From a phage: a stretch of DNA of 64,000 nt. Below are positions 1,889 through 36,455 of this stretch, piece by piece. The translations under genes were made by a program, and so were the position numbers. Location: the sequence record PZ445488.1; one strand, 5' to 3'. The notes under the pieces were generated by a model. That model worked only from the letters and a program-made list of their open reading frames with translations, ran no database searches and was not told the origin of the DNA. Each line of letters begins with the position of its first letter. Position 1 is the stretch's first letter.

Positions 1889-3214
1889 TCAAAGTGCCTC
1901 CAAGTCTTTAGTGTACTCTGTCACAACATCAGTAGACTTCCAATACTCATTTTCTTCTTTCTTAGCTTTAGCTTCTTCTGCTAGTTTACGTGCTTCATCG
2001 GAAGTGATATGGAAGATGTTAAGACCTACCAGTTTATCGACATGTTCTTTATACATTTCGATTTGTGCTAGCTCTTCGGTCAAAGCTTTACGAGTCTTGC
2101 CCTGAATCACAATTTCGCCACTGATAACTTTTTTGATGAAGTGTGCCTTAGCAAAAGCAAGTTTAAATGCTTTTTCAGATTCAAGGATTTTGTTGTCAAT
2201 ACGTTTCTGAACGTAAGTCTTACGGACTTCAACAAAATCTTTGATTAAGTCCACTACGTTATCGTAGACTGCTAATTTACCCTTTTCATTAATCACTGTG
2301 ATGTTTTGTGAACGACGTTCGATGAGACTAAAATCTTTCATGATTTTTTCATGACGTAGATCTTCATCATCAGGAAGCGAGTACTCTTTACGGAACTTCA
2401 CCTTAAACCCAAAGCCGTGTTCACCACAATCATCTTCCCATGAGATTAGACCTTTGTCTTCCAACGGGTCAAGAACCTTACTCACATACGTTTCACGGTC
2501 GAATTTATATGGGATTTCAGTTATCTGCATTTGAGTACGAGATGTGAACTTGTATGTTCCGTGAATCTCATAACGCCCATCAACTTCATGCACTTCACCA
2601 CGGAATTCCGGGAATTCAACTTTTGGCTTAGTGACATTTTTACCTTGAAGAGCTTGTAATACAGCCTTTTTGACTGATTTAAAACTATGAGGCAGAATAT
2701 TTGTTGCGTAACCGGTTGCAATACCAGAGACGCCATTCAAAAGAACTGTCGGAATAATAGGAAGATAGAATTTTGGTGGAACGTGTTCTTTATCTTCGTG
2801 AGCTGGAGCATATTCAGTATCTTTATATACGTTATAGAAATTTTTACTTACACGAGCAAAAATATAACGAGATGCTGCAGCTTTTTGGACTGTTCTAGAA
2901 CCAAAGTTGCCTTGGCCATCTAACAGTGGATAATTGTTGTTCCATGTGTTAGCCATTAATGCACCTGCATCTTGTGCAGAAGATTCACCATGGTGATAAC
3001 CTAAATCTGCAACACCGCCTGCAATTGACGCAAGTTTATGAAATTTTTCTTTATTACCACGAGCCAAATCTAATGCACGATGAACCACAAAACGTTGAAC
3101 CGGCTTAAATCCATCAATCATGTTTGGGATTGCACGGTTTTCAACGGTGTACATAGCATATGCTAAGGCTTCGTTATCAATAATACTTTTTAGATTACGA
3201 GAATTCAATTGCAT
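1889..3214 (-). CDS. 52: DNA topoisomerase II medium subunit (GyrA-like)
   Basis: 441 aa (T4 gp52 is 442 aa); GyrA/ParC-like breakage-reunion region; position beside motA. Confidence 0.85.
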   Translation of the reverse strand: MQLNSRNLKSIIDNEALAYAMYTVENRAIPNMIDGFKPVQRFVVHRALDLARGNKEKFHKLASIAGGVADLGYHHGESSAQDAGALMANTWNNNYPLLDGQGNFGSRTVQKAAASRYIFARVSKNFYNVYKDTEYAPAHEDKEHVPPKFYLPIIPTVLLNGVSGIATGYATNILPHSFKSVKKAVLQALQGKNVTKPKVEFPEFRGEVHEVDGRYEIHGTYKFTSRTQMQITEIPYKFDRETYVSKVLDPLEDKGLISWEDDCGEHGFGFKVKFRKEYSLPDDEDLRHEKIMKDFSLIERRSQNITVINEKGKLAVYDNVVDLIKDFVEVRKTYVQKRIDNKILESEKAFKLAFAKAHFIKKVISGEIVIQGKTRKALTEELAQIEMYKEHVDKLVGLNIFHITSDEARKLAEEAKAKKEENEYWKSTDVVTEYTKDLEAL

Positions 3215-3218
3215 ATTT

Positions 3219-3359
3219 TCACCATATTAATGAACGAATAACCATTATAACATCTGAAATGAAAAGCACTACTTGGATTAGTCCAAACATCACACCATAG
3301 TACAGAACCGTAAGCAACAACAAGAGCCCGAAGGCTCCTGCTAAGATTTTCTTAATCAT
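3219..3359 (-). CDS. small hydrophobic peptide (46 aa)
   Basis: Hand-translated MIKKILAGAFGLLLLLTVLYYGV...; start overlaps stop of next small ORF (TAATG); but contains a GAGCC-UUCG-GGCUC hairpin, so could be terminator sequence rather than coding. Confidence 0.3.
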   Translation of the reverse strand: MIKKILAGAFGLLLLLTVLYYGVMFGLIQVVLFISDVIMVIRSLIW

Positions 3360-3505
3360 TACTCGCCTTTTAATACGTTAAGAAGAGCTAAGACCGCTAA
3401 GGTACCTTGTGATACAGCCTGTTGAAATACTGTTGTTTCGCCTGTAACTAAAGTGTTAACGAATAAAAACGACCAACACAGCAATGCAATAATCCATGCT
3501 ACCAT
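3359..3505 (-). CDS. small membrane peptide (48 aa)
   Basis: Hand-translated MVAWIIALLCWSFLFVNTLVTGE...; GAGG Shine-Dalgarno 7 nt upstream; at the T4 ac/stp-equivalent position. Confidence 0.3.
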   Translation of the reverse strand: MVAWIIALLCWSFLFVNTLVTGETTVFQQAVSQGTLAVLALLNVLKGE

Positions 3506-3557
3506 TTTAATTACCTCAAAAATAAATTAAAGGCCTAACTTAATAGGCCTGTATAAA

Positions 3558-4004
3558 TTAGTAACTCTGCAGAATAAATTTGAAATTATCGGCCAGAAGA
3601 CGGTTCATTTCAGTGAGTGTTTGATATTCTGATGTATGGTTGCGAGTGAACGCTAGAGCCAATTGTCCTTTACCATAACCGGTAGTTAGGGGTTTCATGT
3701 TCTTAGCTGAAACAAAGATTACATCATATTCAATATTATTAGTGCCCATGGTACGGGCGAGTTGTGAGCGGCCTTGACGAATGTGAGAAAGAATTGCATC
3801 CAACCCTTGTTTAGAACGTTGACGTCCTACAAAGAATCGTGCTGCTACTTGTCGCCAATCAGATGAACCTTTAACAAAGAAGTAAAAACCTTCACGAGAA
3901 CGAAACTCTTTAGAAACTTCAGAACCGTATTCACCATTACGAACTACTGCAACAACTTCACCGCCAACTGCCAGAAGGTCTTTACGAGTTAAATATTTGG
4001 ACAT
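3558..4004 (-). CDS. ndd: nucleoid disruption protein Ndd-like
   Basis: 148 aa (T4 Ndd 151 aa); C-terminal block [13 protein letters not shown]...[39 protein letters not shown] matches recalled Ndd; between rIIB and 52 as in T4. Confidence 0.55.
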
Positions 4005-4042
4005 GCTAATTTCCTCAATTGATTAATGTTTTTGTAATCCAT

Positions 4043-4078
4043 GAGAGCATTATACTCTGCTCTCAAGAGTTTGTACAA
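4043..4078 (-). promoter_or_regulatory. early promoter upstream of ndd
   Basis: Minus strand TGTACA(-35)-17 nt-TATAAT(-10) (plus attata 4049-4054); same element repeated at 48952-48986. Confidence 0.5.
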
Positions 4079-4080
4079 TT

Positions 4081-4281
4081 TTATTCGGTTATATCAGAAC
4101 GTTCAAAAAGCTCTTCAACAGTTAAACATTCAGTGTCATCCTCAATAAAGAATCGAGTCCAACACGTTGGGGCGATACAGTTATGAGTTTGTCCGGTGAT
4201 AGAAGCTACACGAATAAGCTGCTGACCATTATTCAGAACAAATTTTTCACCAATTTCAACATCTTTAAAAAGCTTAGCCAT
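4081..4281 (-). CDS. hypothetical protein (66 aa)
   Basis: Track ORF with own PeSL-like promoter. Confidence 0.45.
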   Translation of the reverse strand: MAKLFKDVEIGEKFVLNNGQQLIRVASITGQTHNCIAPTCWTRFFIEDDTECLTVEELFERSDITE

Positions 4282-6631: not shown

Positions 6632-8845
6632 TTATTTGGCTGCTTCCACAGCCTTCATGAATTTAACGATTTGAGCGACTTGTTCTTTAGAAAGAGTACC
6701 ACGTCGTCCCATGTAGTCTGACACAATATGATAATTGGTTTCGAATTCAATAACCATTTTATCATCATTATCGTAAGCATTATCTTTAAGCTTATCGAAA
6801 ATTTTAGCACACAATTCTAACTTCTTATTCAGGTCTGTATTAGTAGCACCTGCGAATCGATTCCATCCCCAACGATTATTTACTGTTGAGAGTTTTGCAA
6901 AGTCTTTACTGATTTCTTTGTTCTTAGAGCTAAAATACTTACTAAGGAAGTTAAGCTCTTCATTACGAGTAATATGATTCAAATAAGGCTGTGCTCTACG
7001 ACTTGGTGATACATACTCATCATAATCTACTTTATCGATTAGCGTAATATAGTCATTAATTGATTTTTCGAACAAGCATTCTACTTCACCAAGTTTACGA
7101 ACTTTCTTAGCAATCTGTGGACGAACTACAGTGAACTCTTTAATACCTGACAAATCAGCAATACGGGTCAAGAAATTGGAGTCATAGTTCAACCAACCTT
7201 TATCTGCGTCAAGACATTCAGCATTAGAACGATTACGAACTATAGCATAACCTTGGATTTCATCTGCTTCACTTGCCGGAATAAAGAGGTCTTCTGATAC
7301 CCAAACATCGTTTTCATTCTTAAAGAATCGATGAGCACTTGGGGATTTAGGACGAGGCTCATTAGTCCGTTTCCTGACTTCAATCCATGGCTTAACGATT
7401 TGTAAAAGCTCTGAAGTCTTGTACATGTTAATGTTGTCGCCATCAAAGATAACTTTAAGGCGTTCCAGAAGTTTCATTGCATCTTCGTCTGTAGGGTCAA
7501 CGAATAGTACGCTTTTACCAAAACCGCGTGGAACTTTACCGGTTAATTTAACCTCGTCTTTAGACATTTCAATTGAATTAAGAGCTCGCATTAATGGAAC
7601 GCGTCCCTTAACGTCGTCAATAACAATTTCAACGTTTTTAATGTTAATGCCAATCAGGCTGTTAATTGAAATAGTTGATGATGAGCTACCACTTTCACGA
7701 ATACGACGAAGACGAGGGGATTCAACGATATCGTATACGACGCCAAGATTACACCACTCAGGCCCCATTTTAAAACGTTTGTACAACTCAGAATAAGTTA
7801 GTTGTTCTTTAGAGTATTTCAGTGATTCAATATTAGACCCGGCCTTTTCCATGTATTTACGAGCGGTATAGCCAAGAGAATCAATTTCACGGAACACATG
7901 ACGTGGGTATTTACAATCAATCCATTTCTTAGAATCTTCAGCGAACAATTTAGCATCGATTTCTGCAACGCGTTTATGGATATTTGCTACCGTACGTTTA
8001 TCAAATGACAATGCTTCACGAGACGGAGCTACATCTAGTTCACCCATAGGGAATTTAATATAAGCTGTAGTGCATCGTGTCATCATCCATGTTTGTTCTT
8101 TAATAACACTTCCGATTGGATATACAATACCACCGTAAACAGCCATGATATTACCGCGTTCACCCCATGGAGCTTCCTTGGCCAAATATACATCATCAAA
8201 TTCAGGGAAGTATTTAATATCTTTAACACCACGAACTTCTGCAATATCACCTAGAGGACGCATAACATATGCAATTTCGGATGCGAACTTTTCAAAATCT
8301 TCCGGGTTAACCGGTACGACTACTTCTACACCAGTACGGTCATCAGGACCCATCTTATCTACAAAGGTCGGCTTAATTTGTGGACCCGTATCATCTTGGT
8401 AGATTACGTAACCACGAACTTCGCCGTTGTGATAAGACGTAAGGTTAAACGTATCGGTATATGCTAGCGGAGCTTTAGAGCCGAGTCCGAATCCACCGAT
8501 GAAATCGTTACTCGATGTTTTAGTTGAAGCAAAATATGAGTTATAGATTCCTGGCTCTTCGTCATTACCTCGAATGGTGAAATCGCTCATACCAGGACCA
8601 AAGTCTCGAACTACAAAACGTGGGTCTAAACGACCTGGAGCCTGAACAATAAACTTATCAGTGCAACCGTTAAGAATTTGTCCATCGATACAGTTTGTAA
8701 TTAATTCACGTACACAAGCCAATTCTTTGTTTGTATAAAGGTCATTAGACAAAATCTTATAAACTTTGCTATTGCCTTGAATAGTGAATGCTGTGCTCTT
8801 ACCACCGGAACCAATAATCGTTTCTTTAGCAGTTTCAATAATCAT
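6632..8845 (-). CDS. rIIA: rIIA rapid-lysis/membrane integrity protein
   Basis: 737 aa (T4 rIIA 725 aa); N-terminal ATPase-like region; synteny with rIIB and topoisomerase genes. Confidence 0.8.
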   Translation of the reverse strand: MIIETAKETIIGSGGKSTAFTIQGNSKVYKILSNDLYTNKELACVRELITNCIDGQILNGCTDKFIVQAPGRLDPRFVVRDFGPGMSDFTIRGNDEEPGIYNSYFASTKTSSNDFIGGFGLGSKAPLAYTDTFNLTSYHNGEVRGYVIYQDDTGPQIKPTFVDKMGPDDRTGVEVVVPVNPEDFEKFASEIAYVMRPLGDIAEVRGVKDIKYFPEFDDVYLAKEAPWGERGNIMAVYGGIVYPIGSVIKEQTWMMTRCTTAYIKFPMGELDVAPSREALSFDKRTVANIHKRVAEIDAKLFAEDSKKWIDCKYPRHVFREIDSLGYTARKYMEKAGSNIESLKYSKEQLTYSELYKRFKMGPEWCNLGVVYDIVESPRLRRIRESGSSSSTISINSLIGINIKNVEIVIDDVKGRVPLMRALNSIEMSKDEVKLTGKVPRGFGKSVLFVDPTDEDAMKLLERLKVIFDGDNINMYKTSELLQIVKPWIEVRKRTNEPRPKSPSAHRFFKNENDVWVSEDLFIPASEADEIQGYAIVRNRSNAECLDADKGWLNYDSNFLTRIADLSGIKEFTVVRPQIAKKVRKLGEVECLFEKSINDYITLIDKVDYDEYVSPSRRAQPYLNHITRNEELNFLSKYFSSKNKEISKDFAKLSTVNNRWGWNRFAGATNTDLNKKLELCAKIFDKLKDNAYDNDDKMVIEFETNYHIVSDYMGRRGTLSKEQVAQIVKFMKAVEAAK

Positions 8846-8857
8846 ATTTTTCTCTCA

Positions 8858-9058
8858 TCACAAGTTACGTTTAAAAATTTCTGCTACTTCAAGAAGTTCT
8901 TCTTTAGTAGCTGTATCGGTTTGTATTTTATATCGAATTTCTTTAAAGCGTTCTTTAAAGGACTCTGCTGACTCTATATCAAAAAATCTTTGGATAAGCC
9001 GGAATTCCCGGAGCACTGCTTTATCAAAAAGTTCCAAGTCCACGTTATATGTTCTCAT
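8858..9058 (-). CDS. hypothetical protein (66 aa), rIIA.1-like position
   Basis: Track ORF immediately upstream of rIIA. Confidence 0.45.
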   Translation of the reverse strand: MRTYNVDLELFDKAVLREFRLIQRFFDIESAESFKERFKEIRYKIQTDTATKEELLEVAEIFKRNL

Positions 9059-9150
9059 AATATTCTCTTCAGTAGATTCCTAGGGCACTATTACTAAAGA
9101 CCATATAATCTATCATCTTATGGGTAATAGTGCCTCAGGCGATTCAGGAT

Positions 9151-10251
9151 TTACGCTGTGAAGATTTTATCCCACATCGCAACAACTGCATCTCGGTTAT
9201 ACTTCTTCCATACTGCTTCAGCACGTTTAACTCGAGCTTCGTATGTGTCAGTGAATTCTAATACAGCTTTTGCGTAAAGCGCAACTACTTCTTTCTTAGG
9301 AGTAGAGGAATCAATTTCTACACGCACAGTATCTGGGTCATATTCGAATGTCGCGTGCGGATAATCCTTAAAAACTAACTGAATTACAGGGACACCTTTA
9401 GAGATGGCTTCAATAGAACTATTCTCTACCGTACCCGTGTCAGGACACGTATTGATAAGTGCTTTAGCTGTTTTAAGACGTTCCATGATTTCACTGTGTG
9501 GAGCATCAATAATAACAGGATACTTAGCCGGTGGTGCCCATTTACTAGGACAGTATCCTACACCATTTTCGCCTAGTGCTTTAATCGCTTCAAGAGCAAC
9601 ATCAGTACGACGCATTTTAGTGTCATAACGTTGTGCACTAATAATCAGATCAGTCGCCGGAAGAACTTCAGGTTTATCATTCAAACAAATAACCGGATAA
9701 TCTTCGGCTTCAAACAACGGATTTGCTCGCCAATAATCATAATCAATTTTGTCAGTCAGACCTGAAGTCATATAACAATATTTGCGTTCAAATTCACGGA
9801 AGGCTTTAGTAGGAGCATAACTCTTACCACCGTTCTTATGAATTTGAATAGTCTGGTCCCAAATTTGAACAATGCCACGAGATACCGGTTCAAATGGTGT
9901 TGCCATAAAATTCTTATGAACTTTAGAGAGACCCGCGTCTTTAATTGCCTGAACGGTTAGTTTGGTCGGTTCCATAGTAACAACAAAATCGTATTCATGG
10001 ATGCCGGCTAGTTCAACAATCTTACGAGCCATAGTATAACTCATACCTAGACTGAATTTAGTCAGATGACCAACAGGATGATGATTAACCTTCCAATCAC
10101 CAAATGTGTCATTATCAAAGCCGATATAATCAATATCAGCACCGATAGAAACTAAATATTTCAACACATTTAAATGTACTGCTTCAAGACCACCTTGTAC
10201 ACGTTCTGGGTTAAATGGGACTGCGCGAGATGGGATAAACATAACTTTCAT
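9151..10251 (-). CDS. GT-B fold glycosyltransferase (GT4-like)
   Basis: 366 aa; C-terminal ENSSIEAISKGVPVI fits the GT4 E-x7-E / G-x-P-V-I donor-binding motif; N-terminal MKVMFIPS...GGLE Rossmann start. Confidence 0.6.
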   Translation of the reverse strand: MKVMFIPSRAVPFNPERVQGGLEAVHLNVLKYLVSIGADIDYIGFDNDTFGDWKVNHHPVGHLTKFSLGMSYTMARKIVELAGIHEYDFVVTMEPTKLTVQAIKDAGLSKVHKNFMATPFEPVSRGIVQIWDQTIQIHKNGGKSYAPTKAFREFERKYCYMTSGLTDKIDYDYWRANPLFEAEDYPVICLNDKPEVLPATDLIISAQRYDTKMRRTDVALEAIKALGENGVGYCPSKWAPPAKYPVIIDAPHSEIMERLKTAKALINTCPDTGTVENSSIEAISKGVPVIQLVFKDYPHATFEYDPDTVRVEIDSSTPKKEVVALYAKAVLEFTDTYEARVKRAEAVWKKYNRDAVVAMWDKIFTA

Positions 10252-10260
10252 AATTAAGCC

Positions 10261-10294
10261 TTATTAAAATTAAAATGAAGCTCCCGAAGGAGCT
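10261..10294 (-). terminator. stem-loop terminator downstream of the topoisomerase gene
   Basis: agctcc-cgaa-ggagct hairpin (10279-10294) then U-rich UCAUUUUAAUUUU on the minus-strand RNA. Confidence 0.45.
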
Positions 10295-12129
10295 TAGGAC
10301 ATCCATTCTTTACGAAGTTCTGAATCATCACCCAACAACATTTCAAAGAGTTCTTTCCAATTTTCAGGAAGTTTAACTACGTCGTACACAGGGTTCTGAA
10401 TCATTTCACGATACTCTGACTTTTCAAGGGAGCCCAATCCCTTGATGTATCGAATACTATGCTTAGGCAGCGTATCTTTAACTTCTTCATACTCAGCTAC
10501 AGTATAAAACCATTTTTGAGTTTTGCCAATTTGTGCAATAATTACAGGTGTTTTAACAAAGCGAATACGTCCTTGTTCAAACAATTCAGGCCAATTACTA
10601 AAGAAAGCAAGCAAAGCAGGATAAATACTTCCAAGGCCGTCATGATCGGCATCGGTCATAATTGCAATATTACGATAGTTCGTATTCTCTGCCTTTTCAC
10701 CAAGAATAAGACCTGTGATAGCACAGATATCAAAGAGCTCTTTGTTCTTCATCATATCAGCATATGACATACCCCAGCTATTCATCACCTTACCACGTAA
10801 TGGGAATCCGCCGTGTAGTTCACGGTCACGAACATCAATGAGATAACCAATTGCCGAATCACCTTCTGTTAAGAACAATGTCGTATCTGCATCTTTACCA
10901 CATTGGTTAGCTTTAATATGCTTATGAACCTTAGCTTTAGTTGCCTTTTTAGCTGCTTTAGTTTCTGCGGCCTTTTCTGCTGCCAATTTACGAGCTAATG
11001 CTGCTTCAATTATAGGCATTAAAACTGCTTCAGAATTCAAAATATTTTTTGCCAATTTTTTGGTATCTAATTTAATATGCGTCCGAATTTCGCCATAAGG
11101 ACTTGTTAAACGCTCTTTGGTTTGGGAATCAAAACGAAGGTTCTTCATTCCACGAACGAACATTAAGAGAGTGAGACATTCCTTGATGCGCGCTTTAGTC
11201 ACGTCGATTTTATATTTGCGTTTAATAGCCGGAATTAATTCTTCGCAAATGTCGTCCATCACACATTCAATGTGATGACCGCCATTTTTGGTATGGATGT
11301 TATTAACATAAGTTAAATGACGGAAGCCATCTGGTGACCGACCAATGGCAATAGAGCATCCATCTTGTTCTTGAATGACGGTCTCTTCATCAAATTGTTT
11401 AGCAAACTTCTTAAAGTTACCTTTAATCCTTTTGCCATTAAATTTAAATTCAATACCAGGATAAACGACTGCCAATGTTTGGAGCCGGTCTATAGTAATA
11501 TCTTGGTATATTTTTTCAAATTGATTCATTTCAAAATGAGAGAAATCAGGAATAAACTCGACCTTAGTCCCGTTGTTTTTAGACGGCTTAGATTTCCAAG
11601 AAATATTATCAGCATTATTAGAACAATTAACTGTCAATTCGTTTTTACCATCTGAAGTAGTGCCAACAAAAGAGACAGAAAAAATATTTGTTAATGAAGA
11701 ACCGACACCGTTTTGTCCACCCGTAACACGTTCTTTGTCGTCACCAAAGTTGCCACCAGCTTTTGTACGTGTCCACGCCGCAACTGGTCCTGGAATTTCT
11801 TCTCCTTCAGGAGTAATAACTGTTTCTTGAGGAATACCTCGTCCATTATCTTCAACAGTCACTTTATTAGAATTTAAATCAATACTAACAGAAATTTTAT
11901 TAGCATATTTGAAATTGGTTCGAATAGCTTCATCTACCGAGTTGTCAATAATTTCATCAATTAATTTGAGAACACCTGCAACATATTTAACCTTTTTAAA
12001 TTCACCGAATAGGAAACGTTCTTGTTCTTCATTGGCAACACTTCCAATATACATGCCAGGACGCTTCAAACAATGCTCTTTATCAGATAGCATTTCAATT
12101 TTATTATCAATCATTAGATTTTCTCTCAA
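10294..12129 (-). CDS. 39: DNA topoisomerase II large subunit, GyrB-like ATPase + Toprim (single fused 39/60-type gene)
   Basis: 611 aa continuous ORF with GyrB-like ATPase N-terminus; in T4 this function is split into genes 39 and 60. Confidence 0.85.
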   Translation of the reverse strand: MRENLMIDNKIEMLSDKEHCLKRPGMYIGSVANEEQERFLFGEFKKVKYVAGVLKLIDEIIDNSVDEAIRTNFKYANKISVSIDLNSNKVTVEDNGRGIPQETVITPEGEEIPGPVAAWTRTKAGGNFGDDKERVTGGQNGVGSSLTNIFSVSFVGTTSDGKNELTVNCSNNADNISWKSKPSKNNGTKVEFIPDFSHFEMNQFEKIYQDITIDRLQTLAVVYPGIEFKFNGKRIKGNFKKFAKQFDEETVIQEQDGCSIAIGRSPDGFRHLTYVNNIHTKNGGHHIECVMDDICEELIPAIKRKYKIDVTKARIKECLTLLMFVRGMKNLRFDSQTKERLTSPYGEIRTHIKLDTKKLAKNILNSEAVLMPIIEAALARKLAAEKAAETKAAKKATKAKVHKHIKANQCGKDADTTLFLTEGDSAIGYLIDVRDRELHGGFPLRGKVMNSWGMSYADMMKNKELFDICAITGLILGEKAENTNYRNIAIMTDADHDGLGSIYPALLAFFSNWPELFEQGRIRFVKTPVIIAQIGKTQKWFYTVAEYEEVKDTLPKHSIRYIKGLGSLEKSEYREMIQNPVYDVVKLPENWKELFEMLLGDDSELRKEWMS

Positions 12130-12790
12130 ATTGCATGACTATATTTTTGTATGAACCTTCCGGAAATCCACGTTTAACGCTTTCTTTAGCAAATTTACCG
12201 ACCTTTGGTTTATCCAATTCTAACCATAATTTATATAAAGAAGATTCATATTCCCATACAGGACTTTTACGATTTTTAAGCCCACACTTTATAAGCGCTT
12301 CCTTTGTATGTTTCTTATTATAAAATGGATTGTTTTTGCCACTCATTGCTTTAGAATGTTCAGGGCGCTTAATTCCATACATCGGATTAAGATCGCCTTT
12401 CTTGATAATTGATTGTAGTTCAATAGTTTCTTCAGAGTGATTGTGTCCATAAAATGGATTTAACTCTTTTGAAACATCCATACCAAAGCACCCATCGACT
12501 GTGGCATAAGACATGTTGAAAAATTTTTCAGATTTAACCACATTATGCAATTTCTGGTAATACAACTCACAAAACGTCGCTTCTTCACGTGTATCAAATT
12601 CGCCAATAATACATGAATCAAATAAATGAGGATTATCTTTTATCTCTTTATCATAAATTTGTTTATATTTTTTCGACTTTACCGTACCATGATAGTAACT
12701 GTTTGTATGTTTATCAAGATAAGTAGACCCTATATAAAACGGTGGCAACTTATCGCCTGTGTATATTGTTAAGTATGTTATGTATTTCAT
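12107..12790 (-). CDS. GIY-YIG homing endonuclease (Seg-like) with NUMOD3 repeats
   Basis: 227 aa; YITYLTIYTGDKLPPFYIGST...YHG GIY-YIG core plus three NPxYG..HSEET-type repeats; 3' end overlaps the first 23 nt of gene 39. Confidence 0.75.
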   Translation of the reverse strand: MKYITYLTIYTGDKLPPFYIGSTYLDKHTNSYYHGTVKSKKYKQIYDKEIKDNPHLFDSCIIGEFDTREEATFCELYYQKLHNVVKSEKFFNMSYATVDGCFGMDVSKELNPFYGHNHSEETIELQSIIKKGDLNPMYGIKRPEHSKAMSGKNNPFYNKKHTKEALIKCGLKNRKSPVWEYESSLYKLWLELDKPKVGKFAKESVKRGFPEGSYKNIVMQFERKSND

Positions 12791-30533: not shown

Positions 30534-31082
30534 TTAACGAGCCCATTTGATGATTTCTGTAATCAAACCATTACGTTCGCTTGCATTAAATCCTATAACT
30601 TTGTTAGCACCATCATGATTAAGTAATTGATATGTTTGGATTTTGTTATGAATTGCAAACTCTTCAAAATGTGAAATGACTGTATTAAAACCGAATGAAG
30701 ACAAAGTAATAAGGTCGTCTTCAAAACTTTCAGTCATTTCGTTACGTGTTAAAATAATTGTGAACACATCATGGTTTTGGCAAAGACGAACATAATCCTG
30801 CTCATAAACATCAAGAACAGAGTCCGCATCTTGACGAATACGTCCATAAACCCAGTTACTAATATATCCACGGTCTAACAGATAAATCTTAGTAGGGTCT
30901 AAATAATTCAACATCGTTTCGAAACAGCCAACTTCATTTCGAGACTTAACATCGAAACGTCCATCAACTGTTCGTTTAGGGAAATCAATCTTTACATATC
31001 TTTCACTAATTTCCATTATGTCATTAATGAAAGTTGTTTTACCGGCATTATCCGGGCCATCTACTAAAATAATTTTAGCCAT
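30534..31082 (-). CDS. P-loop nucleotide kinase, thymidylate-kinase-like
   Basis: 182 aa; Walker A DGPDNAGKTT and DRGYIS (DRY-type) motif; start overlaps stop of the upstream gene. Confidence 0.5.
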   Translation of the reverse strand: MAKIILVDGPDNAGKTTFINDIMEISERYVKIDFPKRTVDGRFDVKSRNEVGCFETMLNYLDPTKIYLLDRGYISNWVYGRIRQDADSVLDVYEQDYVRLCQNHDVFTIILTRNEMTESFEDDLITLSSFGFNTVISHFEEFAIHNKIQTYQLLNHDGANKVIGFNASERNGLITEIIKWAR

Positions 31083-31083
31083 T

Positions 31084-31983
31084 TTATTCCTCGATTACGA
31101 CATCTTCGTATTTAGGTATATTATACGGCGAAGAAATTAAAGCGTTAAAGTAGATGAACTCACCAAGACCTGGATGGAATACTTCTTCAGGATTTTCGAA
31201 ATATTGAATCTTCGGGCGTCCTTTAAGAATTTTATAGTACTCAGTTTTAGTTGGTTTAAAAATTCGAATCAGCGCTTCTTCAGGATACTTATTTCTGTCG
31301 AAGCTATTATTTGGATCGGTTATATAAAGCGGTTGGCCTAATTGAATTGCACATTCAACCACTTGTTCAAAACGATAGCACGGGTCACTAATTCGAAATG
31401 GATGAAAAATACCATCTAGATGAATAGGAGCCAAATCACCTACAAGACGCTGCATGATGGAAGGACGTATAACTTTCTGAGTTACGATAATCTTATTACC
31501 ATCTGCACCGGCGTTAACCAGCACTTCTTTTTGACGTTCATTCAACACAGTAGTTTGAAGTGAACGATTAACCGACAACATATCGGTTTTTAAGAATTCG
31601 TCAATATAAAAACGTGGTTTATTAGGGTCTGCCGTGATATTGAAATTGAATTCTACATCAAAAGCGCCGTCATATCCAGTGATATCTGTTATTAGAAAAT
31701 CACAATCATAATAAGCAATTAATGAATCAACCACAAATTCATTTTCAGACCAGAAATATTTACGAGTGTTATACGCGTTATCTTTATACCATAATGGAAC
31801 AAACTTAAATTCCGGGAAAAGACGTTCACATTCTTTAATATCAGATGCATTACGTGGATATGTAATCACATCACCTGGATTAGCACGGTGCAAATGAAGT
31901 TGGAAGTTGCCATCCTTAAGGATAGCATACTGTCCAGTTTCATAAGACCGCATACTCAAGATTGGTACGCGGAAAATAGCCAT
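31084..31983 (-). CDS. hypothetical protein (299 aa), candidate hmC sugar transferase
   Basis: Sits where T4 carries beta-gt; its ATG overlaps the stop of gene 42 (ATGA). No catalytic motif recognised; the functional call is by position only. Confidence 0.4.
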   Translation of the reverse strand: MAIFRVPILSMRSYETGQYAILKDGNFQLHLHRANPGDVITYPRNASDIKECERLFPEFKFVPLWYKDNAYNTRKYFWSENEFVVDSLIAYYDCDFLITDITGYDGAFDVEFNFNITADPNKPRFYIDEFLKTDMLSVNRSLQTTVLNERQKEVLVNAGADGNKIIVTQKVIRPSIMQRLVGDLAPIHLDGIFHPFRISDPCYRFEQVVECAIQLGQPLYITDPNNSFDRNKYPEEALIRIFKPTKTEYYKILKGRPKIQYFENPEEVFHPGLGEFIYFNALISSPYNIPKYEDVVIEE

Positions 31984-32699
31984 TAGTCAAGGAATCCTTT
32001 AACATAATCAAAATCACGTTCAAACACATGGGCACTTACCATGGTATGAGTATAATCACCAACTTCTACACCGCATTCGTTAGCGATATAATGAAGTAAT
32101 TTTCCTTGGAGATAAAAATCCAACTGCATAACAACAGCACAGTTCTGAGAACGCATATGACAGTGGGTATAAAGCTTACCATCACGAATATAATAAGTTA
32201 CTGAGTCAGTACATGGATATTCAAGTGTTTCGTCCGAATCAAGCAAAGCCTGATCAGAACTTTCTAGAATTTGGAACACAACTCTTCGAGAGTTAGGTTT
32301 TTCTTTAAGTTCTTTTAGAAGAGTTGGTAATTGGGCCGCAATGCGAGGACCATAGAAAGTGTTGAAGTTCGCCGGCAAAACATCTGATTTTGGTTTAGAA
32401 ATAAATTTAGCGACATTAGGATATGCCTTAAACGCTTCTTCTGCGTTGGTACCACCAGAAATCATAAACTTCCAGAAGTCTTCGGCATATTCATAAGAGA
32501 TGCGGTTAATACGTGGGTCGGTCATTTTGAATGATGATGGAGTGTCAACAACTACTGTCATAGACCCAATTTCATTACAACGTCCAATACGAGAATCAGT
32601 TACGAATTCCGGGTTTTCTAAAATTTCACGATTGACTGCTTTAAATGCGGTTTGAAAATCTGCGGCTTTGATATATTTCATTGTGTTATGTTTTCCCAT
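31983..32699 (-). CDS. 42: dCMP hydroxymethylase (thymidylate-synthase fold)
   Basis: 238 aa (T4 gp42 246 aa); NSRR and YPCTD motifs at the positions of the recalled T4 gp42 blocks; synteny. Confidence 0.8.
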   Translation of the reverse strand: MGKHNTMKYIKAADFQTAFKAVNREILENPEFVTDSRIGRCNEIGSMTVVVDTPSSFKMTDPRINRISYEYAEDFWKFMISGGTNAEEAFKAYPNVAKFISKPKSDVLPANFNTFYGPRIAAQLPTLLKELKEKPNSRRVVFQILESSDQALLDSDETLEYPCTDSVTYYIRDGKLYTHCHMRSQNCAVVMQLDFYLQGKLLHYIANECGVEVGDYTHTMVSAHVFERDFDYVKGFLD

Positions 32700-32741
32700 G
32701 TTTACCTCAATACAATTTATTATATACTCAATTCATAAAGC

Positions 32742-32981
32742 TTATTTGAATTTCTTGGCAATGTTGATATAACGTAAAGCTTCAGAATCTATACTTCCAA
32801 GAACACTATGAAGAAATGCATCAGCGTAGTATTCCAATTGAACAGGTTCTTTAATCACTTTAGCCGCTTTGGTTTCAAACAGGCCCATCAGGGCCTTTTT
32901 AAGAATTTGTTCGTTAGTGTTCAGTTTCATAGTCAAAATCTCTTCGTTAAGTTTATAATTAAAACTTTTTCTAGAAATCAT
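32742..32981 (-). CDS. hypothetical protein (79 aa)
   Basis: Track ORF overlapping the stop of the 386-aa gene. Confidence 0.4.
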   Translation of the reverse strand: MISRKSFNYKLNEEILTMKLNTNEQILKKALMGLFETKAAKVIKEPVQLEYYADAFLHSVLGSIDSEALRYINIAKKFK

Positions 32982-34138
32982 TCCGGGTACCTCAAAGCGT
33001 CATCAGAGCTAGTTATATCAATAATAGATATGGAGTTTTCTGCTAACCCGTTTTTAGATAATTGACGTTTATAATATCTTTCACAATATGTACACGTCGT
33101 CCCGCAGATTTCATTAGCACAATCGAAATCTGGATGTCTGAACCACCTTTTTTCTAAAAAGCCATCTAACAAAGAGGTTTCAATATTTACTGTATGTGAA
33201 AACTCAGTTTCGTTTTCAAGAGTGAAAATAGTCTCTAAAGGCTTCCACAGTTCTAACAAATTACCTTCAAACTTTTCAGAAGCGTATGCTTCAAGAACTT
33301 TCAAAATGTAGTCTGTGCTACCTGTACGTCCTGAAACTTTGAATTGAGTGATACCAATATCATTATAAAGTTTCAAATCTTGAGGACGAACAAAACGAGT
33401 TCTCAGCCAGTTAAATGGGTCTGTATCACGAGCTTTAATACAGTGTTGCATTGGATATCCATTTAAGGATTTAGCATCATCAGCGGTAACATCAGTACTA
33501 TGGAAAATATAGCAAGAGTCACGATAGCTACAATGTGTTGTATACCCTTTACCAGCATTAGAACAGAACTCATTTACAAGAACTTCAAATATTATATTGT
33601 TCTTATTGCAAAACTCTGCTGCACGCTTCAGGAAAGAAACTGAACGGTTCTTATGAATTCCGCAGCAGACCTTTTTGATATTATATTGGTCATGCAAGTA
33701 TTTGATTTGAGTTACAGCATCGACATGTAGAATTGTTGAAACTTCAATCTCAATATCTTTATTGACTTCACGAACAATTTCCATAACAACAGGGTTAGCG
33801 ATAGTAATACGCCATACGCCTATTGACCAAAGATACTGAACATAATCCTGAATAGCTTTCTTCTTCCACTCAACTAGTTCTCTTTTTGAACCAGGATTTA
33901 TCGTGTTGAGTGTATAGTTAAAGCAAATACCTAATTCGTTACAACGTTTAACGTAATCTTCTAACATCTTTTTGTCAACGTCAGGAAGCCTAAAATCAGG
34001 TCTGGCTGCTACAAAAGCCATTTCTCTTGTAGAGCCGTATACTTCGTTTATCAAGCTATTAGGATAAGTTTTATTGAGCTCTACGATTTTATCAAGAAGA
34101 GCTAAATCAAAATTCGTTCCGATTTTAAAAGTATTCAT
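32978..34138 (-). CDS. hypothetical Cys-rich protein (386 aa), possible Fe-S / U32-like enzyme
   Basis: Cys clusters EFCSNAGKGYTTHCSYRDSCYIFHS and C-terminal CANEICGTTCTYC (Cx4Cx3Cx2C); not the radical-SAM CxxxCxxC layout; fold unassigned. Confidence 0.4.
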   Translation of the reverse strand: MNTFKIGTNFDLALLDKIVELNKTYPNSLINEVYGSTREMAFVAARPDFRLPDVDKKMLEDYVKRCNELGICFNYTLNTINPGSKRELVEWKKKAIQDYVQYLWSIGVWRITIANPVVMEIVREVNKDIEIEVSTILHVDAVTQIKYLHDQYNIKKVCCGIHKNRSVSFLKRAAEFCNKNNIIFEVLVNEFCSNAGKGYTTHCSYRDSCYIFHSTDVTADDAKSLNGYPMQHCIKARDTDPFNWLRTRFVRPQDLKLYNDIGITQFKVSGRTGSTDYILKVLEAYASEKFEGNLLELWKPLETIFTLENETEFSHTVNIETSLLDGFLEKRWFRHPDFDCANEICGTTCTYCERYYKRQLSKNGLAENSISIIDITSSDDALRYPE

Positions 34139-34195
34139 TTTTTTTGCATCTCACGTTAATTGATGCGATGGTTTTTGCAGGTCTTACTTAAATTA

Positions 34196-34597
34196 TTATA
34201 GATTAGGTTTATATGATTTAAATGTTTCGAATTCGCCTTTATTCATAAGAGCTTTGAATTCGTCAGGACGCATAGCTTTGTCGTCGATAATCCAATCATA
34301 TACTGGTTTATGTGTTAGCAAATTATGGTACTTCAAGCCAATGTTTGCCAAGTTCTGAATCAGACTTGGGAGAATGTCAATTGCTATACGACCAGGACCT
34401 ACTGACTTCATACCACGAGCCGTGTAAAGCGTTATGGTATGCCCTGCATCATACAGGGCATTAATGGCAGACACCATTTCGACGTCTGGTTTGAAGTTCA
34501 CGTAATCACGATTGTTATTCCATTCCGTGATGCAATCATCGATATCAAAACAAAGATTAAGCATGTTTTCTACATGGTGCATTAGATTCGTTCCCAT
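34196..34597 (-). CDS. HAD-like phosphatase (small)
   Basis: Ordered motifs FDIDDCIT (I), ITLYTARG (II), THKP (III), DWIIDD (IV); likely starts at Met 34582, overlapping the upstream stop. Confidence 0.45.
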   Translation of the reverse strand: MGTNLMHHVENMLNLCFDIDDCITEWNNNRDYVNFKPDVEMVSAINALYDAGHTITLYTARGMKSVGPGRIAIDILPSLIQNLANIGLKYHNLLTHKPVYDWIIDDKAMRPDEFKALMNKGEFETFKSYKPNL

Positions 34598-36270
34598 TGA
34601 TGAGTGATATCGCCACCGATTGGACGATAGGAAACACCAGTTTCTTTATCAGTTAGTACCCATTTACCAGGATTTTTTGTAATCAGAGTAGCCGTTACAG
34701 GTTCTGCTACGTCATAACTAATAGAGCCGTCTTGAAGTACACGGCCCATGTTATGTAATTGCTTAGTCAGAAGTTCCATACCTTTATAATATGCGGCCAC
34801 CGCTTTAAGTGGATTATTCTTGAAATAACCACCTAATGCAATCCAGATAATTGCTACTGCCAAATGATGATACTCATTAAACGAACTCATCTTTCCATAT
34901 TTGTAAACTAATGGATTGATGTTAATAGTCACATTACAAGTTGTTTCATCAATAGTAAACTGACCCCAGGTCGGATTAGCATTGAATTCATCATAACCTG
35001 AAACAGCATAAAGCACTTTAGCTTCATCGTACAATTTTGGCCCGTAAATCTTGGTTTCACCAAAATATCCACGAGGGTCGATAAACTTGACTTCACCATT
35101 ATCAGTAATCATAGTATTACTGAAGTTCGGGTCGCCGTGAATAACAGAGTACTGTCCCTGAGAACGGTTATGATAACGAATAAGATGTTCTAAAGCTTGT
35201 TTCAACATTGGCTTCAGACGTCCAATCTTAGTGTAGTTCACGTGTGTGATTTTACCAAATGAATCAATCAATGGCTGAATGCTTTCACAACGATCAATAA
35301 CTTTCGTATAGAACTCTTTAGTGAAATCACGGCGAACAGTTTCAGGACTTACAAAATAAGTGTCTGTGCTGAATTTCAGTGCATCTAAAATTGCATCAAC
35401 AATTTGTGGACGAGCAAGACTTGATTTGGATTTAATATATTCAAATGCCGGCTTACCTTTAATGCGTTCCATAATAAAGTGGCCGCCAGGATGATAACTT
35501 ACAATCCGTGGAACTGAATCTGATTTAACTTTCTTATACCAATTGACTTCATCTTTTTGAAGTGCAACGCCCTGTTCTGTTAAAGCAATCTTTGTTACCG
35601 TTTCTTCGCCAATTTCAACTGCATTAAAACTACGATTAAGTTCACGAACTTCATGAGCTTTTTCAAGTTTAGGCATATCACCTAAATCAATTAGATTCAT
35701 AAGCTCTGATTTATTGAATGCACTACCGTAAAGGAATTCTACGAAATCACGTCCTTTGCAGTATTCGTGAATTTCCTCATCAGTAGAACCCATGTAGAAT
35801 TCCCAGTCTTTGAACTGATAAATTCCTACAACATTACCACCTGTTGAACCTACGTTAGTGATATTTTCACCATCGAAATTATATCGACATTCATCACCCT
35901 TAACATAGATTGCGTTAACATTCCAAGACCATGAACCAAAGTCAGGAATAATATCACACCAGTTAACAATTACGTTATGGCCATCTAAATCTTTGTATAA
36001 TTTAGCAAGAGCATAAGCAGAACCATACGCTTCATCAACTGTACGAATAGTCACATTGAACCCTTCTTGCTCGCAATAAGCTCGAACAGTTTCAGCAAAT
36101 TTTGAATGAACTACTACAATAATTTCATCTGCGCCAAGGTCAGAATAAATTGTATACAAATTGCTCAGAATAGTGTCTTGTTTATAGTTAACAAGCACCT
36201 TAGGAATATGGTGCGTTATTGGATACAAACGAGTTGCCAGTCCAGCACCAAGAATAACAGCTTTTTTCAT
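34582..36270 (-). CDS. bifunctional sugar-1-phosphate nucleotidyltransferase (RmlA/GlmU-like) + anomeric sugar kinase (APH/choline-kinase fold)
   Basis: 562 aa; N-terminus AVILGAGLATRLYPIT (G-x-G-T-R-L-x-P-x-T); C-terminal half has HGDPNFSN (Brenner HGDxxxxN) and FIDPRG (DFG-like). Confidence 0.7.
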   Translation of the reverse strand: MKKAVILGAGLATRLYPITHHIPKVLVNYKQDTILSNLYTIYSDLGADEIIVVVHSKFAETVRAYCEQEGFNVTIRTVDEAYGSAYALAKLYKDLDGHNVIVNWCDIIPDFGSWSWNVNAIYVKGDECRYNFDGENITNVGSTGGNVVGIYQFKDWEFYMGSTDEEIHEYCKGRDFVEFLYGSAFNKSELMNLIDLGDMPKLEKAHEVRELNRSFNAVEIGEETVTKIALTEQGVALQKDEVNWYKKVKSDSVPRIVSYHPGGHFIMERIKGKPAFEYIKSKSSLARPQIVDAILDALKFSTDTYFVSPETVRRDFTKEFYTKVIDRCESIQPLIDSFGKITHVNYTKIGRLKPMLKQALEHLIRYHNRSQGQYSVIHGDPNFSNTMITDNGEVKFIDPRGYFGETKIYGPKLYDEAKVLYAVSGYDEFNANPTWGQFTIDETTCNVTININPLVYKYGKMSSFNEYHHLAVAIIWIALGGYFKNNPLKAVAAYYKGMELLTKQLHNMGRVLQDGSISYDVAEPVTATLITKNPGKWVLTDKETGVSYRPIGGDITHQWERI

Positions 36271-36308
36271 GTTGTGGTCCTCATTGGTAAGTAGGTGTAT
36301 TGTACACT

Positions 36309-36455
36309 ATTCTAGTTAAAGCATTCATACTTTGCTTGTAGTCCAATCATAATCCATCCGATTATAAGAGTCGGAATCATTACTGGAGCCGTTAAGCTCC
36401 AGTAGATAGTCATGACAAGCATCAATAGTAAAAGTCCTATTGTTATTGCTTTCAT
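36309..36455 (-). CDS. small membrane peptide (48 aa)
   Basis: Hand-translated MKAITIGLLLLMLVMTIYWSLTAPVMIPTLIIGWIM...; ATG overlaps the TGA of the isomerase gene. Confidence 0.3.

Follow-up and report, generated by a model that had tools for sequence, protein, structure and literature searches.

A GT-B glycosyltransferase gene between rIIA.1 and the topoisomerase gene of a Mosigvirus and its probable role in the second arabinosylation of phage DNA

The DNA of phage RB69 contains mono- and di-arabinosyl-5-hydroxycytosine, not glycosylated 5-hydroxymethylcytosine (hmC) (PMC13326640); its di-form is beta-D-Araf-(1->3)-alpha-D-Araf-O5-cytosine (PMC13326640; PMC13390438). The DNA of Mosigvirus NP carries the same mono- and di-arabinosyl forms (PMC13390438). 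Bas46 and Bas47 show double arabinosylation of their DNA. The DNA of phage DLP3 is tri-arabinosylated and that of phage Thanatos mono-arabinosylated, the latter having one arabinosyltransferase, which is syntenic with RB69 gp46:47 (PMC13326640). In the presence of UDP-Araf, DLP3 gp76 and gp77 attach a third arabinose to the DNA of RB69 in vitro; each protein alone is inactive and the pair is required (PMC13326640). For RB69, it has been proposed that gp3 forms the beta-D-Araf linkage and the first glycosyltransferase (GT1, gp46:47) the alpha linkage (PMC13326640). RB69 ORF003c, which codes for gp3, was proposed to be an arabinosyltransferase in 2018 (PMC6024577). In 2026, gp3 was proposed as the second arabinosyltransferase and listed as 'beta-arabinosyltransferase 2' (PMC13326640); this role is termed a proposal or hypothesis (PMC13326640; PMC13390438). 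The same second-sugar logic, with a mixture of mono- and di-forms, is known from the beta-glucosyl-HMC-alpha-glucosyltransferase of T2 and T6 (gentiobiosyl DNA; in part after PMC13390438).

The stretch of phage DNA analysed here (64,000 nucleotides, sequence record PZ445488.1; in the following, the window) stems from a Mosigvirus and is 100% identical to CEV1 fragments. In an earlier note, a glycosyltransferase gene, here called GT2, had been placed between rIIA and the topoisomerase gene; its coordinates and flanking genes were confirmed (Table 1). The genes rIIA.1, GT2 and the fused 39+60 follow each other on one strand, which is the typical Mosigvirus order. With 98.9% amino acid identity to RB69 ORF003c/gp3 (NP_861693.1) and the same locus, GT2 is the ortholog of this gene. 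The two proteins agree in length (366 aa), and both phages have the gene between rIIA.1 and gene 60plus39 and possess the arabinosylation cluster. The proteins differ by the four conservative substitutions E16D, D192E, V231A and A327I, none of which affects a family-invariant residue. Upstream of the topoisomerase gene, the window phage additionally has a NUMOD3 homing-endonuclease gene, which RB69 lacks.

GT2 matches PHROG 8302 over positions 1-366 of 366 (E 1.7e-222) and is intact in approximately 155 Mosigvirus genomes at 95-100% amino acid identity. Codon comparison yielded 23 synonymous and 4 non-synonymous differences to the RB69 copy, and 62 synonymous and 11 non-synonymous differences to one metagenomic copy. 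Judged by these sequence comparisons, GT2 is a genuine gene under purifying selection. Its GC3 value of 0.275 equals that of the neighbouring genes; a recent horizontal transfer was therefore ruled out. GT2 is a previously described gene in a new isolate, and its occurrence in the window is scientifically nothing new.

Table 1. Features of the GT2 locus and of the arabinosylation cluster in the window.
Feature	Position	Strand	Basis or remark
rIIA, further downstream of GT2	6632..8845		
rIIA.1, downstream neighbour of GT2	8858..9058	-	Pfam T4_RIIA1, E 2e-30; 100% identical to RB69 rIIA.1
Perfect 11-bp inverted repeat GGCACTATTAC / GTAATAGTGCC, 29-nt loop	9084..9134	-	GT2-rIIA.1 spacer
GT2 glycosyltransferase gene	9151..10251	-	366 aa, ATG start; ORF list
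Shine-Dalgarno AAGG of GT2	10259..10262	-	7 nt 5' of ATG; sequence reading
Hairpin AAGCTCC-TTCG-GGAGCTT then CATTTTAATTTT	10278..10295	-	Overlaps topoisomerase stop codon; terminator scan
Topoisomerase II large subunit, fused gp39+60, upstream neighbour of GT2	10294..12129	-	ORF and annotation of relatives
Nucleotide-kinase-like gene (RB69 gp45)	30534..31082	-	98.9% to RB69 ORF045c; function as proposed in PMC13326640
GT1, first glycosyltransferase, 299 aa (RB69 gp46:47)	31084..31983	-	99% to RB69 ORF046c+047c
Thymidylate-synthase homolog, 5-hydroxy-dCMP synthase (RB69 gp48)	31983..32699	-	Pfam Thymidylat_synt; 98.7% to ORF048c
Peptidase-U32-like gene (RB69 gp50)	32978..34138	-	Pfam Peptidase_U32; 98.5% to ORF050c
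HAD-type phosphatase (RB69 gp51; AfhF-like)	34196..34597	-	95.5% to ORF051c
Bifunctional sugar kinase and UDP-arabinose pyrophosphorylase (RB69 gp52:53; AfhE-like)	34582..36270	-	Pfam NTP_transferase at N-terminus
SIS-domain arabinose-5-phosphate isomerase (RB69 gp55)	36452..37087	-	Pfam SIS; 99.1% to ORF055c

In T4, the region from rIIA to the topoisomerase gene contains rIIA.1 (approximately 67 aa), followed by just 54 nt before gene 60. The earlier description of the T4 locus as one that holds small ORFs only is thus no more than roughly right, and given the short T4 gap, GT2 represents a net insertion. At the same site, JS98 possesses 588 nt with two small ORFs, and other genera carry different cargo. 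No remnant of GT2 was found in the 588-nt gap of JS98; the two small ORFs present there instead are unrelated to it.

A terminator hairpin had been noticed directly upstream of GT2, and separate regulation of the gene had been deduced from it. The hairpin is indeed present and consists of a 7-bp stem and a UUCG loop with a T-rich tail (-10.5 kcal/mol, RNA fold); the annotations of NBG1 and SA79RD also give this element as a terminator. Its distance to the ATG of GT2 is 26 nt, an interval in which neither sigma-70-like nor MotA-box (middle) nor TATAAATA (late) promoters were found. T4, RB3 and JS98, all of which lack GT2, likewise have a hairpin directly 3' of the topoisomerase stop codon. The hairpin of the window is therefore to be assigned to the topoisomerase gene 39+60, at whose 3' end it resembles an intrinsic terminator or a hairpin that stabilises the RNA. 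Both the short promoterless gap and the presence of a hairpin at this position in phages without GT2 argue against separate regulation. Most likely, GT2 would be transcribed by read-through past this hairpin as part of an early/middle leftward unit.

The sugar pathway that had been surmised elsewhere in the window is real: the window holds the whole arabinosylation cluster (30534..37087), whose genes are 95-99% identical to those of RB69. For RB69 gp48, 5-hydroxy-dCMP synthase activity was shown, and the GT1 homolog is the proposed alpha-arabinosyltransferase acting on 5-hydroxycytosine (PMC13326640). According to the same work (PMC13326640), gp51 and AfhF-type enzymes convert Araf-1,5-P2 to Araf-1-P; the function of gp52:53 and AfhE-type enzymes is likewise taken from there. 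The gp52:53 equivalent is a single intact ORF in the window. The modified base was not correctly predicted in the earlier note, which had assumed hmC: the thymidylate-synthase homolog of RB69, whose enzymes are 98-99% identical to those of the window, produces 5-hydroxy-dCMP, and RB69 DNA contains arabinosylated 5-hydroxycytosine. Sequence similarity between GT1 and GT2 is undetectable. This lack of similarity and the distance of approximately 21 kb between the two genes are neutral with respect to complex formation.

GT2 is a glycosyltransferase of the GT-B fold, as had been suspected from the sequence; this fold is characterised by two Rossmann-like domains, the active site lying in the cleft that separates them. 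The assignment rests on a solved structure and on fold comparison. Over its full length, GT2 is 98% identical to the glycosyltransferase of phage HY126, another Mosigvirus isolate, and the two are in essence one protein. Its crystal structures (PDB 9IQZ, apo, and 9IR0, with UDP; released 2025-07-16, several chains per entry) establish UDP binding by an ortholog of GT2 and are presumably those described by He et al. 2026. An AlphaFold2 model of GT2, which was based on a 6-sequence alignment (mean pLDDT 60, residues 116-188 disordered), was used for a Foldseek search only, and its residue geometry was left uninterpreted. Among the 50 matches listed, the HY126 crystal structures ranked top, and all others belong to the GT-B superfamily (probability 1.0, E ~1e-8, TM ~0.5). 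Nearly all of these are glycosyltransferases that use UDP- or GDP-sugars, for instance BshA, PimA, WaaG and MshA; one is the E. coli UDP-GlcNAc 2-epimerase.

The designation GT4-like, which had also been given to the enzyme, finds no support at the level of sequence. The Pfam scan of GT2 gave no family at E <= 1, the NCBIfam scan gave no match, and scanning GT2 together with 10 relatives revealed no usable family in either database. Solely PF20706 'GT4-conflict' matched weakly in 2 of the 11 relatives scanned (best E 0.003), and the GT4 models (CAZy GT4; Pfam Glycos_transf_1 and Glyco_trans_4) do not recognise GT2. When the PDB was searched with a sequence profile built from the 11-member alignment, the search retrieved the HY126 entry only and reached no GT4 structure. 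The likeness to GT4 is visible only through fold comparison or HHpred. GT4-type enzymes possess an EX7E motif, i.e. two Glu residues eight positions apart. If the second Glu corresponds to E281 of GT2, the residue eight positions before is Gly273; an invariant Glu at residue 276 results in the spacing EX4E.

Residue 276 is also the start of the motif ENSSIEAISKGVPVI (residues 276-290). Throughout the GT2 family, little or no variation is seen at Gly20/Gly21, Arg208 and Glu281; E281 (inside TGTVENSSIEAISKGVPV), R208 and R214 do not vary among 11 family members of 36-43% identity. With these residues, GT2 conforms to the nucleotide site of GT-B enzymes, in which a conserved Glu and a nucleotide-binding helix belong to the C-terminal domain, the Glu contacting the ribose and a basic residue serving the diphosphate. 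Thomas et al. aligned Gly-20, Arg-207 and Glu-281 of ORF003c to UDP-contacting residues of T4 alpha-GT, E281 being the counterpart of E311 (PMC6024577). Their Arg-207 is Arg208 in the numbering used here. The T4 alpha- and beta-glucosyltransferases (1XV5 is alpha-GT) resemble GT2 in the GT-B fold and, judging by its proposed function, in the UDP-sugar donor and in DNA as acceptor. T4 alpha-GT and ORF003c are approximately 10% identical and can be related by profile-profile methods only (PMC6024577); in the Pfam scan of GT2, the T4 alpha-GT and beta-GT families remained unmatched, and no homology to them was seen in sequence. The T4 enzymes act on a hydroxyl of the base, whereas GT2 would most likely act on a hydroxyl of a sugar. 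The T2/T6 enzyme, which is likened to GT2 by reaction, differs in the sugar (glucose versus D-arabinofuranose), in the base (5-hydroxymethylcytosine versus 5-hydroxycytosine) and in the linkage.

There are 349 phage records with GT1, among them Klebsiella, Serratia, Dhakavirus and Shewanella Thanatos phages, and the gene is present in each arabinosylating lineage found. GT2 occurs in 212 records, which are exclusively Mosigvirus or Acinetobacter phages; all GT2 lineages also carry GT1, and Thanatos has GT1 and no GT2. Mosigvirus possesses one GT2 copy and the Acinetobacter phages two, which lie inside their arabinosylation cluster. The tandem paralogs gp76 and gp77 of DLP3 (Lazarusvirus) belong to the same family (40% and 43% identity to the GT2 of the window, full length), share its motifs and use UDP-Araf for chain extension on 5-hydroxycytosine DNA. 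They differ from GT2, a single gene near rIIA, in being a tandem pair within the cluster, both members of which are needed for the third arabinose. Mosigvirus GT2 branches outside the gp76/gp77 duplication, which is limited to the Acinetobacter-phage lineage; it is co-orthologous to both and not a strict ortholog of gp77. An exhaustive HMMER search yielded 11 family representatives, and word-indexed searches yielded 5 and 6 clusters. The 7 GT2 loci in the IMG/VR scan all belong to Mosigvirus or Acinetobacter phages. A further, distant member of metagenomic origin, P0010 (34-36% identity), lies beside DNA ligase and DsbA genes on a T4-like fragment of 4.5 kb, which is too short to tell the presence of an arabinosylation cluster from its absence. 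'Tegunavirus sp. BRC001' was rejected as a third lineage, as it is a misnamed Acinetobacter-phage-like genome.

The extra arabinoses track the GT2 copy number, both being 0, 1 and 2. This rule, by which 0, 1 or 2 copies predict 1, 2 or 3 arabinoses, fits the four phages of known chemistry and constitutes a working sequence-based predictor of the DNA modification state. Arabinosylation of their DNA serves phages as a counter-defence that has been worked out recently, and the number of arabinoses per cytosine alters the susceptibility to restriction enzymes, glycosylases and CRISPR systems. If the proposed function is true, GT2 is the mono-/di-arabinosyl switch of RB69-like phages. Collections for phage therapy and biocontrol make wide use of such phages; CEV1, for example, is a biocontrol phage against O157:H7. 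In GenBank, GT2 is a 'hypothetical protein' in nearly all records, and neither Pfam nor NCBIfam has a model for it; the gain is one of annotation.

We consider it likely that GT2 is a soluble GT-B enzyme that adds the second arabinose to arabinosyl-5-hydroxycytosine of the phage's own DNA. In the proposed sequence of reactions, 5-hydroxycytosine would replace cytosine, with 5-hydroxy-dCMP being supplied by the synthase, and GT1 would attach alpha-D-arabinofuranose to the 5-hydroxyl. The genes at 34.2-37.1 kb would provide UDP-D-arabinofuranose. GT2 would then join a second arabinose by a beta-(1->3) linkage to the first one, which leads to the di-arabinosylated cytosine of RB69-type DNA. In the major groove, the extra sugar may thicken the shield that protects the DNA from restriction enzymes, DNA glycosylases and CRISPR nucleases. 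Experiments have established the DNA chemistry of RB69 and NP as well as the chain extension on DNA by the Acinetobacter-phage paralogs; that GT2 itself performs the second addition, with this linkage and this benefit, we infer from the combined analysis.

According to the original proposal of Thomas et al. 2018, made when ORF003c was the sole glycosyltransferase recognised in the RB69 genome (PMC6024577), GT2 would instead be the first, base-proximal arabinosyltransferase, and GT1 would have another job. The publications consulted contain no direct assay of RB69 gp3 or of the GT2 of the window. GT2 is missing from Thanatos, Serratia LC53, Klebsiella phages and Dhakavirus, all of which have GT1 beside the 5-hydroxy-dCMP synthase, and the only transferase of the mono-arabinosylated Thanatos is the one syntenic with gp46:47 (PMC13326640). 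As the extra arabinoses also follow the copy number of GT2, a role in the first transfer is very improbable. The earlier note had left open whether the enzyme adds a first or a second sugar to DNA; the copy numbers support the second and speak against the first. An acceptor different from DNA might be considered, for instance a nucleotide precursor, a protein of the phage or of its host, or glycans of the host envelope, since the structural neighbours use lipids, small molecules and LPS, and published experiments leave unsettled whether the first arabinosylation takes place on the mononucleotide or on DNA (PMC13326640). It is nevertheless hardly credible: the DLP3 paralogs accept DNA in vitro (PMC13326640), the family is confined to phages with the arabinosyl-5-hydroxycytosine pathway, its Acinetobacter-phage copies lie inside the cluster of this pathway, and GT2-bearing phages chemically carry the second arabinose on their DNA.

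Because gp76 and gp77 of DLP3 are active on RB69 DNA only as a pair (PMC13326640), GT2 might also require a partner, and the several chains in the HY126 crystal entries are compatible with an oligomer. GT2 would in this case extend the chain only within a complex, GT1 or another phage protein being the obligate partner. Mosigvirus phages form di-arabinosyl DNA with a single copy of GT2, which makes an obligate complex of this kind improbable. As the second arabinosyltransferase, GT2 would not act on every site, since RB69 and NP DNA retain a mono-arabinosyl fraction. A selectivity of the enzyme, imposed by sequence context or by an amount limited through the leaky upstream terminator, is conceivable, albeit rather doubtful. 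GT1 and GT2 are proposed to form alpha and beta linkages, respectively, from the same UDP-D-Araf; if the donor is the alpha anomer, GT2 would work by inversion on a scaffold resembling that of retaining GT4 enzymes.

The 92-nt spacer between GT2 and rIIA.1, in which the inverted repeat is located, has a fold energy of -28.5 kcal/mol according to RNA folding.

GT2, the glycosyltransferase gene between rIIA.1 and the topoisomerase gene (ortholog of RB69 ORF003c/gp3), is an ordinary member of a known, recently described system. Publications already cover the gene and its position as well as the fold and the role proposed for it, and the PDB contains the crystal structure of an ortholog with 98% identity. 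Thomas et al. (2018) reported that RB69 DNA carries arabinose and suggested that ORF003c, with a GT-B fold, is the arabinosyltransferase (PMC6024577). Lee et al. (2026) corrected the chemistry: The base is 5-hydroxycytosine, the thymidylate-synthase homolog gp48 of RB69 makes 5-hydroxy-dCMP, and RB69 DNA is mono- and di-arabinosylated, the di form being beta-D-Araf-(1->3)-alpha-D-Araf-O5-dC. There, gp46:47 appears as arabinosyltransferase 1, and the name 'beta-arabinosyltransferase 2' is given to gp3; both roles are proposals (PMC13326640). The same mono- and di-arabinosyl forms occur in the Mosigvirus NP, a close relative of Bas47, and the 2026 AEM paper on NP already states the finding made here for GT2 (PMC13390438).

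The distribution of the two transferases was determined by means of tblastn against 50,697 phage records. The first glycosyltransferase of the arabinosylation cluster (GT1) was found in 349 records from many lineages, namely Mosigvirus, Dhakavirus (JS98), Acinetobacter phages, Shewanella phage Thanatos, and phages of Klebsiella, Enterobacter, Serratia (LC53), Yersinia, Proteus, Providencia, Pectobacterium and Edwardsiella. GT2 was found in only 212 records, with one copy in each Mosigvirus and two places in each Acinetobacter phage. Similarity between GT1 and GT2 was not detectable in a sequence comparison. The Acinetobacter phage DLP3 carries its two copies in tandem (gp76 and gp77) inside the cluster, beside the kinase gene and GT1. 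Their products are 40% and 43% identical to GT2 and 58% to each other, and Mosigvirus GT2 branches outside this duplication in a neighbour-joining tree. With UDP-Araf, DLP3 gp76 and gp77 together add a third arabinose onto RB69 DNA in vitro, each being inactive alone; both extra linkages in DLP3 are beta, whereas the base-proximal linkage is alpha (PMC13326640). This fits one mechanism per transferase family.

The copy number of the GT2 family tracks the published number of arabinoses per cytosine: Thanatos has no copy and one arabinose, RB69 and NP have one copy and two arabinoses, and DLP3 has two copies and three arabinoses. The earlier note had proposed that GT2 adds a first or second sugar to hmC-DNA. 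The distribution of GT1 and GT2 and the copy numbers speak strongly against the 2018 view of ORF003c as the first transferase, and the same pattern argues against a non-DNA acceptor. The addition of a second sugar to DNA, as proposed in the literature, is therefore the better alternative, and in this respect the note was largely right. Its chemistry has to be corrected: The sugar handled by the GT2 system is D-arabinofuranose. The Mosigviruses Bas46 and Bas47 are both described as doubly arabinosylated, and deletion of an arabinosyltransferase, 'Aat', reportedly sensitised Bas46 to a defence system. The base, too, is not hmC but 5-hydroxycytosine (PMC13326640). The one Tegunavirus record among the GT2 matches, OZ038340.1 ('Tegunavirus sp. 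BRC001'), contains two GT2-family copies with 83.7% DNA identity to DLP3 gp77, which is why the taxon under which it is filed looks wrong; the genome resembles AbTZA1-type Acinetobacter phages.

Pfam and NCBIfam scans of the GT2 protein gave no match; PHROG 8302 ('unknown function') matches over the full length. The family has very few members: From 1.84 billion cluster representatives, 11 proteins were retrieved in an exhaustive HMMER profile search, word-indexed searches yielded 5-6 clusters, and a scan of IMG/VR returned Mosigvirus and Acinetobacter-phage loci only. A profile search of PDB sequences matched a single entry pair (E 1e-195), which according to Foldseek comprises 'phage HY126 glycosyltransferase' (9IQZ) and the same 'with UDP' (9IR0), released 2025-07-16; this protein is 98% identical to GT2. 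The Foldseek query was a low-confidence predicted model (pLDDT 60), and the fold call therefore rests on the HY126 crystal structure. The remaining structures among the 50 Foldseek matches listed all share the fold of the GT-B superfamily; almost all of them are GT-B glycosyltransferases for UDP- or GDP-sugars (BshA, PimA, WaaG, MshA, PglA, tetrahydrobiopterin glucosyltransferase), and one named non-transferase is E. coli UDP-GlcNAc 2-epimerase. GT2 is thus a GT-B enzyme, as had been claimed. The label 'GT4-like' is fair at the fold level, but membership at the sequence level fails in the Pfam scans.

Among the 11 family members (36-43% identity), R208, R214, E276, E281, H299 and E303 are invariant, among others, and the conservation of Gly20 and Gly21 is 90% or higher. 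In the alignment of Thomas et al., Gly20, R208 (numbered Arg-207 there) and Glu281 correspond to residues of T4 alpha-glucosyltransferase that contact UDP (PMC6024577). The most distant clear relative is P0010 (394 aa, 34-36% identity), encoded at 3040..4224 of the JGI metagenome contig Ga0489998_000752, a T4-like fragment, where it is preceded by a DNA ligase gene, six small ORFs and a DsbA-like gene. It is a third genomic location for the family and another variable site in a T4-like contig.

GT2 is clearly a functional gene. No copy examined contains an internal stop, and codon differences are predominantly synonymous by a wide margin (23 synonymous versus 4 non-synonymous compared to RB69, 62 versus 11 compared to the most divergent copy fetched). 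The ORF boundaries agree exactly with those of the earlier note, a Shine-Dalgarno sequence (AAGG) lies 7 nt 5' of the ATG, and the quoted motif ENSSIEAISKGVPVI corresponds to residues 276-290. GC3 is 0.275, and the base composition is like that of neighbouring genes. The DNA of the window matches a deposited fragment of Escherichia phage CEV1 with 100% identity and about 150 Mosigvirus genomes with 98-99% identity, for example RB69, Shf125875, SHSML-52-1 and NBG1. In these records, GT2 is the third complement-strand ORF and is nearly always labelled 'hypothetical protein'. Shigella phage JK45 (MK962757.1), filed as Tequatrovirus albeit with a Mosigvirus-like glycosyltransferase locus, contains a partial second copy (2694..3104) right after the intact one, in which residues 237-366 of the glycosyltransferase follow in frame on the five initial codons of rIIA.1 (MRTYN). 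Either a tandem duplication or an assembly artefact accounts for this copy.

Coordinates of the features in the window
Feature	Position	Strand	Remarks
rIIA	6632..8845	minus	downstream of GT2, as is rIIB on the same strand
rIIA.1	8858..9058	minus	downstream of GT2; Pfam T4_RIIA1
Inverted repeat	9084..9134		GT2/rIIA.1 spacer
GT2	9151..10251	minus	366 aa; ATG start
Hairpin	10278..10295	minus	upstream of GT2
Topoisomerase large subunit gp39+60, fused	10294..12129	minus	upstream of GT2
ORF with NUMOD3 motifs	12107..12790	minus	227 aa
Kinase-like gene	30534..31082		
GT1	31084..31983	minus	299 aa; no Pfam matches
Thymidylate-synthase homolog	31983..32699	minus	
U32-like gene	32978..34138		
Small HAD-type gene	34196..34597		
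NTP-transferase fusion	34582..36270	minus	562 aa
SIS-domain isomerase	36452..37087		

The sugar pathway that had been noticed elsewhere in the window is indeed present: Its gene cluster occupies 30.5-37.1 kb, with uvsX on one side and DNA polymerase on the other. Five of its genes are 95.5-99.1% identical to RB69 ORFs 045c, 048c, 050c, 051c and 055c (global alignment), GT1 is 99% identical to ORF046c+047c (tblastn), and the NTP-transferase fusion stands at the position of ORF052c+053c. Both pairs are split in the RB69 record, which has been attributed to sequencing errors (PMC13326640); the single intact ORFs in the window support this view. For the thymidylate-synthase homolog, one possible register pairs Asn185 with Asp169 and Asp193 with Asn177 of E. 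coli ThyA, which would match the 'D169N' signature published for 5-hydroxy-dCMP synthases. Since the automatic local alignment settled on a register two residues away, this mapping is tentative.

In T4, rIIA and rIIA.1 are followed directly by gene 60, whereas GT2 lies in between in the window; in T4 and RB3 only a 54-nt spacer separates rIIA.1 from the topoisomerase gene. The small genes 60.1 and mobA of T4 are located inside its split topoisomerase gene. The 1.2-kb GT2 cassette, bordered by the hairpin on one side and a 92-nt spacer on the other, is a net insertion at a site with differing cargo across genera. The site is a variable cargo slot in T4-like genomes. In phage JS98 (NC_010105.1), 588 nt without an annotated gene (2437..3024) separate rIIA.1 from gene 39; they contain two hairpins and two unrelated but plausible small ORFs with ribosome-binding sites (~59 and ~100 aa). 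The GT2/rIIA.1 spacer folds at about -28 kcal/mol with no T-tract after it, and contains an inverted repeat of 11 bp without mismatches (GGCACTATTAC ... GTAATAGTGCC), whose loop is 29 nt long. This element could act in RNA processing or RNA stability, or be a scar left by the insertion.

The hairpin reported upstream of GT2 (AAGCTCC-TTCG-GGAGCTT, followed by CATTTTAATTTT) exists, folds at -10.5 kcal/mol, and is labelled terminator by other annotators too. It overlaps the topoisomerase stop codon and leaves only 26 nt to the ATG of GT2, in which no sigma-70-like, MotA-box or late-promoter motif was found. The suggestion that GT2 is regulated separately is therefore unsupported. Because a hairpin also follows the topoisomerase stop directly in T4, RB3 and JS98, it is a conserved 3'-end feature of the topoisomerase gene that did not arrive with the glycosyltransferase. 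GT2 is probably expressed via read-through, and its expression may be reduced as a result.

The 227-aa ORF immediately upstream of the topoisomerase gene overlaps the start of that gene by 23 nt. Its product contains three NUMOD3 motifs (Pfam E 5e-11), has an N-terminus of the YIGS type, and is most likely a Seg-like homing endonuclease. RB69 has no gene at this position, ORF005c coming directly after the topoisomerase gene. The T4 topoisomerase gene also carries a homing-endonuclease remnant (mobA).
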